In this document: piece after piece, positions 13,690 to 30,642 of the stretch
Numbering within the stretch: position 1 is the stretch's first letter
Layout of the letters: every line of letters begins with the position of its first letter
Assembly (NCBI GenBank): GCA_041178085.1
Contig: JBEGVZ010000118.1
Location: 1-30,642, forward strand
Direction: 5' to 3'
DNA length: 30,642 bases
Source: Pseudomonadota bacterium
Lineage (GTDB): Bacteria; Bdellovibrionota_B; Oligoflexia; Oligoflexales; RGVZ01
Notes under the pieces: generated by a model
Told to the model about the DNA's origin: nothing
Seen by the model: only the letters and a program-made list of their open reading frames with translations
The model's database searches: none
Position numbers and translations under genes: made by a program

Positions 13690-15611
13690 TTGTAGCTCCT
13701 CGTCGCGAGCTTCACATTTTCGTAAGCCAGCGACTCCTGATGCCGCTTGTGGCCTTTGACCTCACCCTTGGCGTCGCCCTCAAATTCCCAGGCAGCGACA
13801 TGGCAGAAATTCTCGTCGTCCCGTTTAGCCTCGCCATCTGGCGTCTGGTACTCAGTCCGGAAGTGACCGCCACAGGACTCTTCGCGGGAAAGTGCATCAA
13901 GGCACATGAGTTCGCCGAACTCAAGGAAGTCCGCAACGCGTCCAGCCTTCTCAAGGGACTGATTGATTTCTGCTGCTTCGCCGGGGACACGAACGTCGTT
14001 CCAGAATTGCTCGCGCAATTTGGGGATTTCCTTCAGTGCCTGCTGCAGGCCCGCGCGGTCGCGCGCCATGCCGCACTTGTCCCACATGATCTTGCCGAGC
14101 TCCCGGTGAAAGCTGTCGACCGTGCGCGATCCCTTGATCGAAAGCAGACGGTCGATCCGGCCACGTGCCTCGGCCTCGCAGTGCCGAAAGGCGTCGTGTG
14201 ACGTATCGACTGGTTCCAGCTTGGTGCCTGCAAGGTAATTGCCGAGCGTGTAAGGAATCACAAAATAACCATCGGCAAGGCCCTGCATCAGTGCACTGGC
14301 TCCAAGCCGGTTTGCACCGTGATCCGAGAAGTTTGCCTCTCCAAGGACATGCAGGCCCGGGATCGTGCTCATCAGGTTGTAGTCGACCCAGAGACCGCCC
14401 ATTGTGTAGTGGACAGCAGGGTAAATCCTCATCGGCATCCGATATGGATTTTCGTCTGTGATGCGCTCGTACATGTCGAACAGGTTTCCGTAACGCTCGC
14501 GGATCTTGTCCTCGCCAAGGCGGCCGATGGCTGCGGCAAAGTCCAGGTAGACACCAAAACCACCTTCACCGACACCGCGCCCCTCGTCGCACACTTCCTT
14601 GGCACTGCGGCTTGCGATGTCACGTGGAGCAAGGTTACCAAAGCTCGGGTACTTGCGCTCAAGGTAGTAATCGCGTTCTGCATCGGGGATTTCAGCTGGC
14701 AGCCTCGTGTCACCCTTGTTCTTGGGAACCCAAACACGGCCATCATTGCGCAGCGACTCTGACATCAAGGTCAACTTGGACTGGTAATCGCCCTTGACCG
14801 GAATGCAAGTCGGGTGAATCTGGGTGAAACACGGGTTGCCAAACGCTGCACCGCGTTTATACGCGCGGTAAGTCGCCGTTACATTCGATCCCTTGGCGTT
14901 GGTCGACAAGTAAAAAACATTGCCATAACCGCCCGTGCAAAGGAGCACGGCATGGGCAGCGTGCGATTCAACCGCGCCGGTTACGAGATTTCTGGCGACG
15001 ATGCCACGAGCCTTGCCATCGACAAGGACAAGGTCCAGCATTTCTGTCTTCGGATACATCTTGACCTGACCGGCACCGATCTGGCGGGAAAGGGCGCTGT
15101 ATGCCCCCAGCAACAACTGCTGCCCGGTCTGGCCTCGTGCATAGAAGGTCCTCGACACCTGTGCACCGCCGAATGATCGGTTATCGAGAAGACCGCCATA
15201 ATCGCGGGCAAATGGAACGCCTTGTGCGACGCACTGATCAATGATCAGGGTGCTGACCTCTGCCAGGCGGTAAACGTTGGCCTCACGTGCGCGGAAGTCG
15301 CCACCTTTAATTGTGTCGTAAAACAGCCGGTAAACGCTGTCGCCGTCGCCGCGGTAATTCTTTGCCGCGTTGATCCCGCCCTGCGCCGCAATCGAGTGCG
15401 CGCGGCGTGGGCTGTCCTGGAAGCAGAAGCACTTCACGTTATAGCCAAGTTCCGCAAGCGTCGCCGCAGCAGAAGCGCCGGCCAGACCCGATCCGACCAC
15501 AATTACGTCAAACTTGCGCTTGTTGGCCGGAGAAACCAGTTTGAGGTCAAACTTGTGGCGTTCCCATTTCGACTCAAGAGGGCCTGACGGTATTTTAGAA
15601 TCCAGTTTCAT
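13686..15611 (-). CDS. sdhA: Succinate dehydrogenase/fumarate reductase flavoprotein subunit
   Basis: VVGSGLAG (FAD binding), [29 protein letters not shown] and [10 protein letters not shown]. Start set at MKLDSKIP. Confidence 0.97.
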
Positions 15612-15633
15612 CGGTGACTCCCCTGATTCCCAA

Positions 15634-16302
15634 CTAATTGACAAAGCCCAGGTAGATGGCCAGCGGTATCGAAGCGAACAAAGCAGCAATGGCAACTCCG
15701 AGCACCGGCCCCGCCTTGCGCAGGACGCCGTTGTAGCGCGGGTGGTTTAGCCCCAGGGTTTGGAAAACGCTGGAGACACCGTGGCTCAAGTGAAGACCGA
15801 TTGCTGCCATCGCAAACAGATACCCGGCAGCCACTGCAGGCTGCTGGAACCCGATGACGAGCATACGCCGCACTTCGAATGGACCAAGCTCTGCGATGCG
15901 CGGGTCGGTCACGCGCCAAGTGAAATGCGCGAGGTGAAATAGCACAAAGGCCAGCATGACAAGTCCGGTGTGGATCATGTAGCGCGAGGCAAAAGTCGCC
16001 TGGGCTGTGTTTTCATAGGCGTAACGCTGCGGCCTCGCACTGCGATTTTCGCGGGTCAGCCAGATCGCAAGGCTGACGTGAGCCACAAAGGCCGCCAACA
16101 AACCACCACGAGCAGCCCACAGCAGAGCTGGATATTTTTTAAGGCCTTCAGCGTAAATATTTAGCGCATCCGGCCCGGCAAAAACGAGCAGATTTCCCGA
16201 AACATGCGCAATCAAGAACCCGGTAAGCATCAAGCCCGTGATCGCGGTGACAACCTTCGCGCCAACGGGTGATTGCAACGTACGGCCAAGCCAAGAATTC
16301 AT
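15634..16302 (-). CDS. sdhC: Succinate dehydrogenase cytochrome b subunit (b558 type)
   Basis: Five TM segments with His ligands (AHVSGN, VAHV, FHLAHF, HLSHG), a GAGGAGG SD, and first position in the sdh operon. Confidence 0.93.
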
Positions 16303-24464: not shown

Positions 24465-25397
24465 ATGCCAGGCATCGGGATCGTAACAAATCCACATTCC
24501 AAACTGAACAAACGAAATCCCGAACGCCACAAGGTGCTGGGATACATCCTCGGTCAGCGCGGTCAACTTGCTGTTACCCACTCACTCGACGAGTTGCAGT
24601 CAGTTGCCTTGGAATTCAAGGAAAAGCAAGTGGACGTCCTGGCCATCAACGGCGGGGACGGCACAATCAGTCTGACGCTCACAGCTTTTATAAGGGCTTA
24701 CGGGGAACAGCCCCTGCCAAGGATTGCCATACTGGGTGGAGGCACAATCAATGTCCTGCGCACGAACCTTGGCATCCGGGGCCGGCCGGAAGACGTGCTC
24801 TTTCGGCTGGTTGAACTCCACAGCGCCGGAGGCGAATTCCCTGTGCGCAAGGTTCCGACTCTTGAGGTGGACGGCAATTACGGCTTTCTTTTTGGTGACG
24901 GCGTCGCAGCAAACTTCCTTGAGCTTTTTTACAAGAACAAGACAAACGCTCTTGGATCTGTCCTGTTGCTCCTGAAGTTGTGCGCGGCCTCCATCTTTGA
25001 CCGGGAGTTTTTCAGGTCCGTTATCAACAATCGAAACTATCATCTGCGACCGGCAGGCGGGCGACCCCTGAATGAAGATGCCCTCTCTGTCATGTGTTCC
25101 ACCCTTCGCCTGGGTCCAATGGGAATTCCCTATTTCAACCTTTTGGCCGGGAATCCTGATAAGATGGAATGCATCAGCTTCCAGATTGAACCCTCGAAGT
25201 TCCTTTGGCAGCTACCCGTCATGGTCGCAGGGGCTGTTTCTGGAATGAACCTTTGGCAAAAGCGGATCTGCGCCCCCTCGGTAGAGATTGAAGCCGATTC
25301 TGGTCGGCCGTACACGATCGACGGAGAACTGTTCAAAGCTGCGGGCGAAACGATCACTGTAAACATGGGGCCACGACTTGAGTTTGTCACCATCTGA
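24465..25397 (+). CDS. Diacylglycerol/lipid kinase family protein
   Basis: IVTNPHS, GGDGT, GGTINVL and YTIDGE motifs, with a GAAGG SD before ATG 24465. Confidence 0.9.
   Translation: MPGIGIVTNPHSKLNKRNPERHKVLGYILGQRGQLAVTHSLDELQSVALEFKEKQVDVLAINGGDGTISLTLTAFIRAYGEQPLPRIAILGGGTINVLRTNLGIRGRPEDVLFRLVELHSAGGEFPVRKVPTLEVDGNYGFLFGDGVAANFLELFYKNKTNALGSVLLLLKLCAASIFDREFFRSVINNRNYHLRPAGGRPLNEDALSVMCSTLRLGPMGIPYFNLLAGNPDKMECISFQIEPSKFLWQLPVMVAGAVSGMNLWQKRICAPSVEIEADSGRPYTIDGELFKAAGETITVNMGPRLEFVTI
24480..24508 (-). promoter_or_regulatory. Putative extended -10 sigma70 promoter of rpoH, inside the DAGK coding sequence
   Basis: Minus strand TTCAGT, 17 nt, TACGAT, with a TGn extension (TGtTACGAT). Confidence 0.45.
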
Positions 25398-25440
25398 ACT
25401 GACTGCGGATATCGCGCAAATCAATGACAAGGGACGATTC

Positions 25441-26508
25441 ATGCTGCCCAACCCGGTACCCTCCGGCGCGCTGCCACCTCCCACGCCGGAAGAGATCAAG
25501 AGTGCGCTTGCAATCAAGACCGTTACCATCGAATGGCTCGCGGGGGACGGTTCTGACCGCAGCTATTACCGGATACGCTCCCCTGAGCTGCAAAAGCCAG
25601 TGGTGTTGATGCAACTTTCAGGAAACGACGCGCGCGCTCTGCAAGCAGGCCGCTATGACTGGCTGGAAGTTGCTTCGATCCTGACGGTTCACGGCATCCG
25701 GGTGCCGCGCCTTGTGAAGTCGATGCCGGACCAGGCAGCCCTTGTGATCGAGGACTACGGCAACATCATGCTGGAAACCCGGGCTCATGAGATGCTCAGC
25801 CAGGGGGAACAAGCCCGCGTTGAAGATCTTTACCGGGAGGCGGGCGACGTCCTGGTCAAATTCCTCGAAATTAAAGTCCCGGCCAACATCCGGGAGGAGC
25901 GCCCGGTTTGGACTCAGCGGGCTTTTGACTTGGACCGATTTGAGTGGGAACTGAACTTCTTCTGCAAGAAATTCCTTGAGCCCGTCGCAAGGATCAAGCT
26001 CTCAGAAGATCAGTCCGCCCTGATGCAACAAGAAATTGCGCAGATTTCGCGGACACTGGCTACCCTCCCTCAACACTTTGTGCACAGGGATTTTCACTCG
26101 CGAAACATCATGGTGGACGATGCCCGCCTTGCCGTCATCGATTTCCAGGACGCGCGCCTTGGGCCCGCGGCCTACGATGCTGTTTCCCTTTTCTTTGATT
26201 CTTATGTGCCGTTTCCAGCTGAGTCGCGCCGACGGATGTTCGCCGGATTTCTAGACCTCGTCGGGTCAAGGCTTGGCCCTGGGCTTCGTCTTGAGATCGA
26301 GCAACAATGGCGCGCCGTTCTGCTCCAGCGACAGCTCAAGGCGATTGGCAGTTTTGGTTATCTGACAATCGACAAGAACAAAGGCAATTACCTCCGGTAC
26401 GTCAAGCCAGCACTTGCGACACTCAAGTCCGCTGGCGTCAGTGACCCGCGCTGGCCGTTCCTGTCGGGCGAATTGATCGAGATGATCGACAACGCCCTCG
26501 GAGGTTGA
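25441..26508 (+). CDS. amgK: Aminoglycoside phosphotransferase-family kinase, AmgK-like anomeric MurNAc/GlcNAc kinase
   Basis: LAGDGSDRSYYR, EDYG, HRDFHSRNIM, IDFQDARLGP..YD.VSL and QRQLKAIGSFGYL. It is followed by a nucleotidyltransferase gene. Confidence 0.82.
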   Translation: MLPNPVPSGALPPPTPEEIKSALAIKTVTIEWLAGDGSDRSYYRIRSPELQKPVVLMQLSGNDARALQAGRYDWLEVASILTVHGIRVPRLVKSMPDQAALVIEDYGNIMLETRAHEMLSQGEQARVEDLYREAGDVLVKFLEIKVPANIREERPVWTQRAFDLDRFEWELNFFCKKFLEPVARIKLSEDQSALMQQEIAQISRTLATLPQHFVHRDFHSRNIMVDDARLAVIDFQDARLGPAAYDAVSLFFDSYVPFPAESRRRMFAGFLDLVGSRLGPGLRLEIEQQWRAVLLQRQLKAIGSFGYLTIDKNKGNYLRYVKPALATLKSAGVSDPRWPFLSGELIEMIDNALGG

Positions 26509-27587
26509 TCCTGGGCGACACGACAAACACTTGTGGTTTCGTCCTGGCGGCTGGTTTCGGGACACGGCTTCGTCCCATCACGGACGTCATCCCTAAACCC
26601 CTGGTGCCATTTTTCGGGGTCCCGCTGCTGGACTTGGCGCTGTTCCGGCTGAAATCCACCGGAATCGTAGACATCGCGGCCAACGCCCACTACCTGGCCG
26701 GAAAGATCGCGGAGCATCTTGAGCAAAGCCCCTGGGGGCGAAGGGTCCACCTTTCGATCGAAGACGGCGAGATCCTCGGAAGAGGCGGCGCCTACATCCC
26801 GCTGCGTACCTGGTTTGGCAACAGGACCATCGTCGCCTACAACGGCGACGTTATCAGTGACATCGACGTTTCGGCCGCCTTGGAAGAACACCGCCGGAGC
26901 GGTGCCGTGGCGACCATGGTGGTTCTTCCTGCTCCACTCGGTCGGGATAATGCTGTCTTTTGCGATCCTTCGGGCCGCGTTGGCGCCATTGCCAAGGCCG
27001 CCCCTGACGGGAGCGGGAAATGGACGGCCCGCGGTTTTGCCTGTCTGCAAATCCTGGAGCCGGAATTTCTCGACCTTCTACCCCAAGCAGGTCCCTCTGA
27101 CATCCTCGGTGCCTACGACCTTGCGATCGCTCGCGGGCTCCGCGTAAGTAGCCATGTTCATGACGGTTTCTGGCATGACCTCGGCAGCCCGGCGCAGCTT
27201 TACACGGCCCACCGCGAAGTTCTCGAGCTGCCCGGGGATGAGGCTCAAAAGCTTTTAAACCGGGTTGGGGTCATTGAATTTGCCAGGGCCTCGGGCGGCG
27301 AGGTGATTTTCGTGCCGCGAGGCCGCGACTGGCAGGATCCGGGTGGCCTTCTCACCATGACGGGACCTGCATGCCTCACAGGAAGCGCCGCATGCGCCGT
27401 TAAACCCTGGGCAGCCGCACTCCCGTCAAAGCTCCACCTTGGACCACTCGTAGTTGCCGAAGCCGGCTTCCATGCCGGGCCCGCATCCAAATTTACTGAA
27501 GCACTGGTAATGAGAAGTGCCCGGATCGACCAGTCACCTAGTCACAAACCAACTGTATATGATCACAACCACGTGATCACACTGTGA
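26505..27587 (+). CDS. Sugar-phosphate nucleotidyltransferase, MurU-like, with C-terminal extension
   Basis: LAAGFGTRLRPIT..IPKPL, NAHYL, YNGD and WHDLGSP motifs. TTGA overlap with the amgK-like gene. Confidence 0.85.
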   Translation: MILGDTTNTCGFVLAAGFGTRLRPITDVIPKPLVPFFGVPLLDLALFRLKSTGIVDIAANAHYLAGKIAEHLEQSPWGRRVHLSIEDGEILGRGGAYIPLRTWFGNRTIVAYNGDVISDIDVSAALEEHRRSGAVATMVVLPAPLGRDNAVFCDPSGRVGAIAKAAPDGSGKWTARGFACLQILEPEFLDLLPQAGPSDILGAYDLAIARGLRVSSHVHDGFWHDLGSPAQLYTAHREVLELPGDEAQKLLNRVGVIEFARASGGEVIFVPRGRDWQDPGGLLTMTGPACLTGSAACAVKPWAAALPSKLHLGPLVVAEAGFHAGPASKFTEALVMRSARIDQSPSHKPTVYDHNHVITL

Positions 27588-27780
27588 CCAAGGCTGTTCA
27601 CAACACTTGATCACGCGGGTGGGTGGGGCAATCGGCGTGAGCAGGCCGAAACCTATGATTAGAGGCAATCTGGCCAAATCGCGAAGCGACTGATCACAGT
27701 CGAGTGAACAGGCTGATCAGGTTGTTCAGAGGTTTTAAGGGGTGATCAACTGGGGGTTGTAGAGGACTATTCACTGTTCC
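27532..27780. repeat. Cluster of TG(A/T)TCAC / TGATCA motifs; candidate protein-binding array or origin-like element
   Basis: TGATCA at 27560, 27574, 27608, 27691, 27714 and 27743. TGTTCA at 27595 and 27723, TGAACA at 27705. Variants TGACCA 27585, TGAGCA 27638 and TATTCAC 27768. Confidence 0.85.
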
Positions 27781-27930
27781 GGTCTACAAGAGGGGCATCC
27801 GGTTCTGTAATATCAACTCCTGGTATCTAGCCAACATCGCTTCCCTGTACTTTGAAAGCTCACTGGCTTGGAATCACCACCGGTCGATTTCACAAAACTC
27901 TGCGCACCCACTTTTCGATACGCGATGCGA

Positions 27931-28950
27931 TCAAACGTTCATCGAAAAGGGCTTCGCATTCATCCAAACACTTGCCAGGATTTTGGCGCTGGCCTTGCCG
28001 CCTTCAATTTTCTTAGCGAGACTGCTGCCTGCCTTCTGGATCTTGTTAACGGTCATCTTCACGGATTCGCTCTTCTTCAGAGCCGCTGAGAGTTGATCCT
28101 GGGTCACGTAATAGATGACGGTTCCAGGGGTCAGGTTGTCCGGATCGTCGATCAGGTCGTTTTGACGCCAGATTGACTTCCAGTTGCGGTGTTTACCAAA
28201 GATACGCTTGGAAATGGTTGCCAGAGTTTCGCCTGCCTGGACGGTCGTTGTGCCGCGACGCAAACTTTCGTAGGTCTGGGCAAAAGCCTTCGAGGAATCA
28301 TCCAGGGCATAGTAAATCACATCGCCCGGGTAGATGCGGCTCGGATTGGCCACGCCCGTAAGATCTGCCAGCTCACGCCAGCGCTTCATGTCACCGTAGA
28401 TGCGGCCTGCAATCTTGGACAGCGTGTCGCCTTGCTGGACCACATAGGCCATCTTGGCGCCTGCTTCGGGAAGAGTCACCACCGATGCACCTTCCGGAGC
28501 GGTCGGAGCCACTGCCGGGGCTGCTGGGGTCGTTGCTGCATCTGCTATCGCTGCCGGTGCCTCGGCAGGAGCCGGGGCGCCTGCTGCTGCGTTGGCAGCC
28601 GGATTTGCACCGTTCATGTCGGTGACGATCGACTGAAGCTCACTTTCGGTCGAATTGCCGCCTGCATTCATCGCAGGATCAGTGCCAGCGGCCGGGTTTT
28701 CTGCAACAGCGACTTCATCGCCACCTGCTGCCGAACCATCGGTCTGGCCGTTGTTGAGGGCAGTATTATCCGCCGGTACTTCTCCGTCCTCTGGAACTGC
28801 GGCATTTGCCGATCCGTCCTCGGACACATTTTCTTCCACCGCCTCTACGTCACCTTCTTCTTCGGCCGAGCTGCTGCAGCCCGTGATGCCGAAGTGGGGG
28901 ACGAGAAGCAGTGCCGCCATGACGAAATGGCGAGACCACTTGATCCTCAT
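27931..28950 (-). CDS. LysM peptidoglycan-binding lipoprotein (two LysM domains)
   Basis: Lipobox ITGC and a long acidic/Ala-Pro linker. LysM repeats YVVQQGDTLSKIA...NPSRIYPG and TVQAGETLATIS...DPDNLTPG. The GGAGGA SD fits ATG 28950. Confidence 0.92.
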   Translation of the reverse strand: MRIKWSRHFVMAALLLVPHFGITGCSSSAEEEGDVEAVEENVSEDGSANAAVPEDGEVPADNTALNNGQTDGSAAGGDEVAVAENPAAGTDPAMNAGGNSTESELQSIVTDMNGANPAANAAAGAPAPAEAPAAIADAATTPAAPAVAPTAPEGASVVTLPEAGAKMAYVVQQGDTLSKIAGRIYGDMKRWRELADLTGVANPSRIYPGDVIYYALDDSSKAFAQTYESLRRGTTTVQAGETLATISKRIFGKHRNWKSIWRQNDLIDDPDNLTPGTVIYYVTQDQLSAALKKSESVKMTVNKIQKAGSSLAKKIEGGKASAKILASVWMNAKPFSMNV

Positions 28951-28990
28951 CTTCACTCCTCCAAAAAAAAGTTAAAGAACCACGTCGAGG

Positions 28991-29018
28991 TTCTCGGCGC
29001 GAAGTTCACGAAGCTTTA
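28991..29018 (-). promoter_or_regulatory. Putative sigma28 (FliA) promoter of the LysM gene
   Basis: Minus strand TAAAGCTT (29018-29011), 12 nt, GCCGAGAA (28998-28991). Both boxes match the consensus at 7 of 8 positions. Confidence 0.7.
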
Positions 29019-29065: not shown

Positions 29066-30061
29066 ATGACAGGGCAGCAGGCAAATAATTCCGGGCAGCG
29101 TTTCGCGCATACGACCGTCCTTCTCAAGGAGTCGGTGGACGCGCTCGCCTTGGCGCCCGGCGATTATGCCATCGACTGCACACTCGGCGGCGGCGGCCAC
29201 ACGCGCCTCATGCTGGAAGCTGTTGGTAAGAATGGAAAAGTGTTTGCTTTTGACCGTGATTCCAGGGCGATCGAAAACGCGCGTTTCACCCTGACGACCG
29301 AGATTGCAAACGGCCAGCTGGTCCTTGTTCACGCGGCATTTTCAACCATGCCTGAATGGATAAGAACAAATGGATTGGCGGGTAAAATCGCCGGGATTCT
29401 TGCCGACCTTGGCGTCAGCAGTCCTCAAATTGACGAAGCAGAACGCGGATTTTCATTCGTCAAGGACGGGCCTCTCGACATGCGCATGGATACCCGCACT
29501 GCAACCAGTGCTGCAGACCTTGTAAACAACATGGACGAGAAGGAACTGGGAAAATTGTTCCTTGAATTTGGCGAGGAACCAAAAGCACGACATTTCGCCA
29601 AAATGATCTGCAGGCAACGGCAGGCGAAACCATTTCTAACGACGCTCCAGCTGGCTGACTTCATCGACGCGCATTCGCCCTATCACGGGCCCAGTCGAAA
29701 GCATCCAGCCACCAGGATTTTCCAGGCACTGAGGATTGCCGTTAATGATGAGATGGGCGAGCTCGTGCGTTTTTTAAACGGCTCGCTGCCAGTCCTTCGT
29801 CCACAGGGGCACCTGGCCATCATTACGTTTCACTCCCTGGAGGACCGCGCCGTGAAACGTTTTTTTCTGGACGCCTCAGGAAAGACAAAAAAACAGTCCC
29901 TTGCCCGCCATGTTGCCCTTCCTGAGTCAGAACTTGATAAAATGGTGGAATCGATGGGCGCGGTGGTGCCGCCCTTTCCGCAAGAGCCGTCCGCTGAAGA
30001 GATCGTAGCAAACCCCAGGTCAAGGAGTGCCCGGTTGAGGGCGTTCCGGAAGTCAGGTTGA
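29066..30061 (+). CDS. rsmH: 16S rRNA m4C1402 methyltransferase
   Basis: HTTVLL, DCTLGGGGH, DLGVSSPQID..ERGFSF, GPLDMRMD, HPATRIFQALRIAVNDE, FHSLEDR and NPRSRSARLR. Confidence 0.98.
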   Translation: MTGQQANNSGQRFAHTTVLLKESVDALALAPGDYAIDCTLGGGGHTRLMLEAVGKNGKVFAFDRDSRAIENARFTLTTEIANGQLVLVHAAFSTMPEWIRTNGLAGKIAGILADLGVSSPQIDEAERGFSFVKDGPLDMRMDTRTATSAADLVNNMDEKELGKLFLEFGEEPKARHFAKMICRQRQAKPFLTTLQLADFIDAHSPYHGPSRKHPATRIFQALRIAVNDEMGELVRFLNGSLPVLRPQGHLAIITFHSLEDRAVKRFFLDASGKTKKQSLARHVALPESELDKMVESMGAVVPPFPQEPSAEEIVANPRSRSARLRAFRKSG

Positions 30062-30069
30062 GGTCCGAC

Positions 30070-30327
30070 ATGTTAAGCCAGACCCCCCTATATGTCGTTC
30101 TGCTGATCGCGGCGGCTATCGCCTTCGCCCGGGTTCATCTGCGAGTCAAAACAACCCTCACTGGTTACGAGATCGGTCGCTTGAAAGCCGCCGAGGGGCG
30201 GCTCCTCGCTGAAAAAAGTGAACTAAGCGTTGAACTCGCCCGACTCACTGGCCGGGAGTCTCTTGACACACACGCTGGAGAAGAACTCCAGCCTTCAACC
30301 GGCCAGGCCGAAGGCGGCACGCCATGA
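30070..30327 (+). CDS. ftsL: Cell division protein FtsL-like
   Basis: Short TM plus coiled coil (GYEI..LK.....L..E...L.VELARL), located between rsmH and the PBP gene. TTG 30058 is an alternative start. Confidence 0.75.
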   Translation: MLSQTPLYVVLLIAAAIAFARVHLRVKTTLTGYEIGRLKAAEGRLLAEKSELSVELARLTGRESLDTHAGEELQPSTGQAEGGTP

Positions 30328-30642
30328 AAAGGGGCAAGAACAGGCCGGCGGAACATGCCGGGCGGCTCGCAGGGGGAAGAATACTCCTCGCCTCGCGCCT
30401 TGCCACCGCGGCTTTCATTGTGATCGCCGTCCGGGCCGGCTATTTGCACCTCTTCGCTCCGTCGGCAAAGAACCTCCAAGCTCTAGCCGACAAGCAGTAC
30501 CAGTTGCACGAGGATCTCAGACCGTATCGAGGGGGTGTGTTCGATCGCAGGGAAGAGCCTCTGGCGATCAGCATCCGGACACCATCTCTCGCAGTCAATC
30601 CACGTGTATTCAATCCAGACCATCGCCAGGTAAAAAACCTGT
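30324..30642 (+). CDS. ftsI: Penicillin-binding protein FtsI, 3'-truncated by the window edge
   Basis: My translation is MKRGKNRP...TM...KQYQ....PYRGGVFDRREEPLAIS, matching the class B PBP motif RGxIxDR...LAxS. ATGA overlap with ftsL. Confidence 0.88.
   Translation, partial: MKRGKNRPAEHAGRLAGGRILLASRLATAAFIVIAVRAGYLHLFAPSAKNLQALADKQYQLHEDLRPYRGGVFDRREEPLAISIRTPSLAVNPRVFNPDHRQVKNL

Follow-up and report, generated by a model that had tools for sequence, protein, structure and literature searches.

In Bacillus subtilis, the partner of RacA is ram (TGACGCCGGCGTCA), palindromic sites clustered near oriC (PMC4914108), and in Staphylococcus aureus, RicO and ricS form a dedicated origin-proximal element, apart from parS, that anchors origins (bioRxiv 10.64898/2026.03.06.710092). 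The type Ib and type II centromeres of plasmids, such as parH-ParG, parS-omega and parC-ParR, are single loci of short direct and inverted repeats (PMC5016525). The SBS of SlmA (GTGAGTACTCAC) and the matS of MatP (GTGACRNYGTCAC), which mark chromosome domains, are palindromes of the GTGA...TCAC type (PMC3116907). Moreover, short boxes cluster in a non-coding gap at the oriC of Bdellovibrio bacteriovorus, which lies between dnaA and dnaN and uses the box NN(A/T)TCCACA, the terminal CACA of DnaA boxes being reported as conserved (PMC5124646), as well as at datA and DARS of E. coli, which are built on DnaA boxes (PMC4585315).

The locus considered here is an array of short boxes between two convergent genes of a bacterium of the Oligoflexales. 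It lies in a stretch of 30,642 nucleotides, hereafter the window, which is contig C118 of a 3,003,545-base assembly (the source genome, to which the array counts relate). Literature searches and genome comparison indicate that the array is undescribed in the searches run and is kept in many Oligoflexales. No mention of GTGACTAGTCAC was found within a literature scope that most subscription papers fall outside; judged by title, no paper treats TGACTAGTCA as a bacterial chromosomal element, and none on chromosomes or replication in Oligoflexales concerns such an array.

The box array and its surroundings

The array (27532–27780) contains six TGATCA hexamers (27560, 27574, 27608, 27691, 27714 and 27743) and three TGTTCA/TGAACA hexamers (27595, 27705 and 27723), and these, like the ten 9-mers listed in the initial annotation, were all found where that annotation had placed them. 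Against the nine sites observed, none of 5000 dinucleotide shuffles of this interval got to five. Counted genome-wide in 250-bp windows, the array is the densest box cluster of the 3.0-Mb source genome, with nine TGWTCA sites as opposed to five in the runner-up, and seven TGWTCAC sites as opposed to three.

The boxes, none of which is assigned to a strand, comprise a left group of about six (27533–27617; for example CACCTAGTCA at 27535, TATATGATCA at 27556 and AGGCTGTTCA at 27591), two weaker boxes in the middle (27634–27665; GTGAGCAGG at 27637 and TGATTAGAGG at 27656), and a right group of about six (27687–27773), in which CGACTGATCA at 27687, TGAACAGGCT at 27705 and GGACTATTCA at 27764 best match the box shared across the order. 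The boxes had initially been read as 9-mers ending in CACA; a register of 10-bp pseudo-palindromes reads better. Within 27500–27940, no site comes within one mismatch of TTWTNCACA. The A+T maximum at the array is 24 of 40 bases, compared with 32 of 40 in the dnaA-dnaN gap, which upholds the earlier remark that an AT-rich unwinding element is absent, and neither dif nor matS adjoins the array.

On the left, an AmgK-like phosphotransferase gene (25378–26508, plus strand) is followed by a gene for a MurU-like nucleotidyltransferase (26505–27587, plus strand), both scoring below the NCBIfam cut-offs. The convergent gene on the right (27931–28956, minus strand) encodes a protein with two LysM domains, homologues of which occur in 101 of the 104 genomes searched. 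Of the initial description of the array as occupying a 343-bp non-coding gap between two gene ends, the convergence stands; the placement wholly outside genes does not, as the left frame ends at 27587 and the left-group boxes at 27535–27583 fall within the murU-like coding sequence. Likewise, about 120 nt of the gap belong to a separate, conserved hairpin block.

This long hairpin (27790–27911, minus strand), located 3' of the LysM gene and predicted to be a structured non-coding RNA, occupies one third of the gap and is its best-conserved part in five of six congeners. Its folding z-score is -3.76 on the minus strand versus -1.28 on the plus strand; covariation is weak, with two of 36 pairs changed on both sides and equally high values in 274 of 500 shuffles. 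No Rfam family matches at E<=5, the 6S, SRP, RNase P and tmRNA genes are each located elsewhere in the source genome, and a small ORF inside the block was discarded, its reading frame being broken in relatives. The sister genus carries a different hairpin in the same place, with an invariant CCCGGGTGGCGCC loop (loci L003–L007). Upstream of the LysM gene, 28992–29018 (minus strand) resembles a sigma-28 promoter, a pattern match only; a similar match precedes the LysM gene in G033 and a LysM paralogue in G048. The remainder of the window (29066–30642, plus strand) holds rsmH, an ftsL-like gene and the start of an ftsI-like gene, with no mraZ upstream of rsmH and no MraZ match in the source genome.

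Conservation and position relative to the origin

A search for murU gave 56 matches in 61 genomes, and among the 50 loci examined, the convergent junction of murU and the LysM gene is kept in 43. Motif discovery at these 43 junctions returned words like TGACTAGTCA. Pooling 313 sites from 54 arrays yields the symmetric consensus TG-HH-TA-DD-CA, a 10-bp pseudo-palindrome with the centre TA in 207 sites and CA in 77, although these sites were chosen by the model itself, which sharpens the consensus. The spacing between boxes is mostly 11–17 bp. In the genus of the source genome, the box has shifted to TGATCA(C/G), and on sequence comparison, the TGATCA boxes of the window are a drifted, genus-specific form of the Oligoflexales array.

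Held-out models recover the array within and between families, and the earlier suggestion to look for it in relatives is thus answered by its recurrence across Oligoflexales families. A genus model from which the source genome was left out gives the array the highest rank in the whole genome (14 sites and 132 bits; the next cluster has eight sites and 69 bits). When G008 and G019 are excluded from the training of a sister-genus model, the G008 junction comes out on top in 180 kb (64 versus 22 bits). From the sister genus to the source genus, six of six junctions are recovered. With models from other families, 16 of the 18 junctions of the own family are found at p<=0.05; in the opposite direction, the own-family model finds 10 of 25 junctions in other families at the same threshold and leaves the array undetected at 15. 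Among 40 further LysM 3' flanks, 21 have a cluster at p<=0.05, whereas no array was detected in 19, nor in any of the eight genomes of one genus of a second order. Since relatives are not independent, all such conservation counts overstate significance.

Two perfect boxes 1–7 bp apart occur somewhere in 28 of 104 whole genomes, compared with six of 104 for the reversed control. All 13 genomes of the sister genus have this pattern (control, two of 13), 11 of them at the junction, and in the 3.3-Mb genome G008, the junction match is the sole one. The source genome itself has no match to the pattern, the exact word TGHHTADDCA is absent from C118 and C23, and the order-wide model, which gives at least 6 bits to only three boxes of the array, places it outside the top four clusters of that genome; this array is the most degenerate form. 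Between relatives, the spacers diverge and the boxes stay. In contigs of a related strain from one study, eight changes lie within 27527–27654, of which two affect boxes, in each case at a variable position; 27655–27869 has no listed change.

The orientation of the boxes is not polar (157 of 271 pairs), and a polar arrangement hinted at by a few genomes proved not to be general (17 versus 13 genomes). Where the gap is short, the boxes are located within murU, and murU tails are richer in boxes than their synonymous recodings in 25 of 79 cases at p<=0.05, with about four expected; the tail in the source genome is not enriched (3 versus 2.3, p 0.41). Single boxes are enriched neither between genes nor along chromosomes, and show no excess over the reversed control (36 versus 31 in G008).

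Over its last 120 bases, the window matches the beginning of contig C23 in reverse complement. Joined in this way, the array and the dnaA-dnaN gap are about 28 kb apart, and parS is about 24 kb from the array. C23 carries gyrA, gyrB, dnaN, dnaA (14496–15956) and parAB, and its dnaA-dnaN gap (C23:14174–14495), with three near-canonical DnaA boxes only, all within one mismatch of TTWTNCACA, and the A+T-rich stretch mentioned above, is the likely oriC. Three perfect parS cores lie beside parAB (C23:18194–18304); they are the only ones in the source genome, which has a single ParB, and the array is devoid of the 16-bp parS palindrome. The parAB genes of this genome sit inside the atp operon.

The cumulative GC-skew minimum, which the origin proposal of the initial annotation had led one to expect at the array, falls at dnaA-dnaN (C23:13271). 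In a 180-kb stretch of G008, it lies at 313,794 (dnaA at 315.1 kb, array at 343 kb), and in a 220-kb stretch of G040, it lies at 980,342 (dnaA at 980.4 kb, junction at 1,062 kb); in all three genomes, the skew partly reflects gene orientation. In contig C1 of G040, the skew turns negative again beyond about 1,080,000, some 100 kb from dnaA, possibly owing to an inversion or a misjoin. GGKDH(T/S)T, the usual motif of DnaA domain IV, is kept in 33 of 34 loci, the remaining one being unreadable, and each of the 33 loci read has 2–13 near-canonical DnaA boxes behind dnaA. In contrast, the 43 junction windows of about 450 bp contain no exact DnaA box and 35 with one mismatch. With skew minimum, canonical boxes, parS and parAB all at C23, the array is not oriC, and the origin of the source genome is at dnaA-dnaN, 28 kb away. 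The canonical domain IV and the lack of exact boxes speak equally against the shifted DnaA specificity that had been proposed, and control by GATC methylation finds no footing either, as the box cores of the sister genus are CTAG rather than GATC and GATC occurs at the expected frequency (0.97). An impression that oriC has fewer boxes where arrays exist was dropped because family f12 has both.

In other genomes, arrays are 1.5–102 kb from dnaA where the distance is measurable: within the atp genes that immediately precede dnaA (G024, 1.5 kb), at the parA/parB junction (G031, 4.4 kb), behind gyrA (G060, 6.7 kb) and at 102 kb in G064. In G027, an array and a parS-like site are 95 bp apart. Arrays also occur upstream of genes in C7 of G024, G039, G048, G033 and G037, mostly without a measurable distance to oriC. 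Among the 27 genomes in which a single contig carries both murU and dnaA, the two are 27–34 kb apart in 23, a constancy that represents a single inherited gene block and not independent cases. In three of three genomes, the top clusters near oriC exceed far controls (36.7 versus 23.8, 42.0 versus 18.6 and 37.7 versus 30.5 bits), a modest contrast, as chance clusters reach 40 bits in 3 Mb.

Candidate functions and binding proteins

The array is distinct from DnaA boxes and from parS, and of the initial proposals, a loading array for a DNA-binding protein at a chromosome-organising site would fit the comparative evidence best. The chances appear about even that it is an origin-linked, centromere-like docking array for a putative dimeric protein. 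Several dimers of this protein would bind side by side along the 10-bp boxes, and the bound protein would anchor or organise the origin region. The two-fold symmetry of the box and its spacing of mostly 11–17 bp suggest a dimeric binder; the lack of a consistent orientation, the retention of boxes inside coding sequence and their occurrence beside different origin-region genes point to action as double-stranded DNA; and RacA-ram and the type Ib centromeres of plasmids suggest, by analogy, an anchoring role. Being conserved, single and origin-proximal, the array offers a defined DNA bait with which such a protein could be sought.

Several candidate binders were rejected. MraZ was not found in the source genome, its single TetR has no array upstream, and its sole MerR_1 match (C127:19417–20436) has TTAGACA/TGTCTA repeats in its own promoter and is CarH/LitR-like by inspection. 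Two neighbouring proteins look membrane-bound or periplasmic by inspection, and matches to RHH_1, HTH_17 and DivIVA are absent from the source genome, which is 96% complete. An orphan, single-copy RHH/CopG-like protein, P0017 (L424/L450; C43:46376–46885, plus strand), was reached via a weak RHH_5 match in three congeners. Of 104 genomes of the phylum, 98 encode it; its 279 homologues include proteins annotated as CopG/RHH or HicB-like, and its profile matches an antitoxin structure (E 9e-4). The predicted model has two confident helices at residues 36–81 and a C-terminal helix (pTM 0.37), of which the latter is conserved, whereas the beta-strand residues are variable. Its gene is unlinked to the array and also occurs where no array is seen, and in the 29 loci read, its promoter is no richer in boxes than the reference (0.45 versus 0.41 per 330 bp). 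Because of the variable beta-strand and the box-free promoter, P0017 is a lead only as the possible reader of the array.

A bolder reading, to which a small chance is given, would make the array a second, ParB-independent centromere of the Oligoflexia, in which the TG-HH-TA-DD-CA array near oriC is read by the class-wide RHH-like protein; with the same small chance, and jointly with it, the conserved C-terminal helix of this candidate would tether the origin to the pole or license replication. If so, the array would be a candidate for the origin anchor still missing from bdellovibrio-like predators.

An appreciable, though minor, chance is left to a regulatory role, in which the boxes are operators of a transcription regulator that acts as distal or downstream control, as a sink, or as a roadblock at which transcription stops between the convergent murU and LysM genes. 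The array does follow the LysM gene: where murU has moved away (G017, G007, G012 and G058), it is still found 200–550 bp behind the LysM stop, arrays in G024, G039, G048 and G033 precede LysM-family genes or neighbouring ones, and the conserved hairpin and a C-rich minus strand come after the LysM stop. Yet the 43 junctions have no consistent match to sigma-70, -54 or -28 promoters, 25 sigma-28-like promoters hold 0–2 half-boxes, and a dispersed regulon is not apparent, single boxes being unenriched as described above. Moreover, there is no LysM gene that the arrays at parAB, at gyrA and inside murU could control, and the boxes are non-polar. Even under this reading, the array would be an order-wide cis-element of a core, uncharacterised protein, maintained even within coding sequence.

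A site like datA or DARS, where low-affinity DnaA boxes titrate or recharge DnaA away from oriC, was among the initial proposals and is now improbable. The array is single and origin-proximal, and some of its boxes are 2–3 mismatches off TTWTNCACA; the low-affinity sites of E. coli depart from the consensus by 3–4 bases (PMC4585315). On the other side, datA and DARS themselves are made of DnaA boxes (PMC4585315), and the corresponding core is missing from the array and the junctions alike; the box shared across the order has two-fold symmetry and has not retained the terminal CACA reported as conserved (PMC5124646); and it differs between two genera in which DnaA domain IV is canonical.

Equally slight is the chance of neutral repeat drift combined with protein-coding constraint on a His/Asp-rich MurU tail, with no bound protein at all. 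Codons for Asp-His and Val-Ile-Thr coincide with the left group, which is unenriched over recodings in the source genome, the arrays of G012 and G017 are plain 14–16-bp tandem repeats, and the pattern also matches many unrelated repeats. Nevertheless, the same box recurs from family to family in gaps that cannot be aligned, and it passes the held-out tests; boxes are kept while spacers diverge, and the two box changes in the related strain, from one study, are at variable positions.

Finally, an origin or a second origin with shifted DnaA specificity is hardly credible, for although the cluster is unique, occupies the largest gap of the window and lies so near dnaA (28 kb) that skew would hardly reveal a second origin, the skew minima of all three genomes and the near-canonical boxes of all 33 loci read are at dnaA-dnaN, where the Bdellovibrio origin also lies (PMC5124646), and the array is without an AT-rich element.

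Comparison with known systems

Look-alike arrays also occur in viral and metagenome sequences. Three perfect boxes are present at 12 viral loci and at 118 metagenome loci, which come from 23 of 64 parts of the metagenome data, and 15 of the 130 were inspected. Most have no recognisable link to the system, many being plain tandem repeats; ten have a homologue in the source genome, of which three are the amgK-murU-LysM junction and another is located behind a dnaA-like gene. In L338 (1501–1542), three TGAATAGTCA boxes with a 16-bp period are found just downstream of a dnaA-like gene in an organism of 62% G+C, and in the viral loci L275, L276, L281 and L285 (around position 1500), degenerate TGCCTAAGCA/TGACTAGACA boxes with a 15-bp period precede a conserved phage gene pair. 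L291 (119–3032), on a metagenome contig, is a plasmid-like cassette in which parA and a 138-aa RHH_5-like gene (E 1.8e-4) are followed by about nine boxes, in the variants seen in the Oligoflexales array, and then by a long ORF that is rep-like by position and has no useful Pfam match. In L299 (941–1560) and L353 (1450–2092), TGACTAGTCA arrays immediately precede a gene for a 166-aa HTH_17-like protein that probably contains a coiled coil; L353 additionally holds a Rep3 gene. The proteins of these three loci have no homologue in the source genome and were set aside as binders.

Among the systems introduced at the outset, Bdellovibrio oriC and datA/DARS resemble the array as short-box clusters, and differ in consisting of DnaA boxes and, at oriC, in possessing a DUE (PMC5124646, PMC4585315), neither of which the Oligoflexales array has. 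SBS and matS are single sites scattered over macrodomains, and SBS has a G at an inner position (PMC3116907), whereas the Oligoflexales array is origin-proximal, shows no scattered enrichment, and is nearly without G at that position; the source genome has one matS-like match.

RicO-ricS is alike in being an origin-proximal element separate from parS. As far as its description goes, by which rather than by sequence the two were compared, ricS comprises nine dispersed, 18-bp, non-palindromic sites, and RicO is an HTH-coiled-coil protein of Firmicutes (bioRxiv 10.64898/2026.03.06.710092). The arms of ram, TGAC...GTCA, have terminal TG and CA as does the Oligoflexales word (PMC4914108), but ram is 14 bp long with a GC-rich core and has about 25 sites over about 600 kb (bioRxiv 10.64898/2026.03.06.710092), in contrast to 10-bp boxes in one tight array. 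A binder of the RacA or RicO type, with a MerR-like HTH, a coiled coil and a polar anchor, was not found in the 96% complete source genome, nor were matches to a RacA-like MerR.

The likeness to type Ib and type II plasmid centromeres lies in the single locus of short repeats, which the array shares, with its spacing of mostly 11–17 bp and boxes in either orientation, and in L291, where the same box variants stand beside parA and an RHH-like gene. The layouts of L291, L299 and L353 resemble plasmid centromeres (PMC5016525), by analogy and not by membership. The differences are that the array is chromosomal, with murU-like and LysM neighbours and no adjacent RHH or NTPase gene, that canonical ParABS is located 24 kb away, and that the gene of the orphan RHH-like protein lies elsewhere in the genome, with no boxes ahead of it by which it might autoregulate. 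Should the second-centromere reading be true, the Oligoflexales array would be a plasmid-type centromere domesticated on a chromosome.
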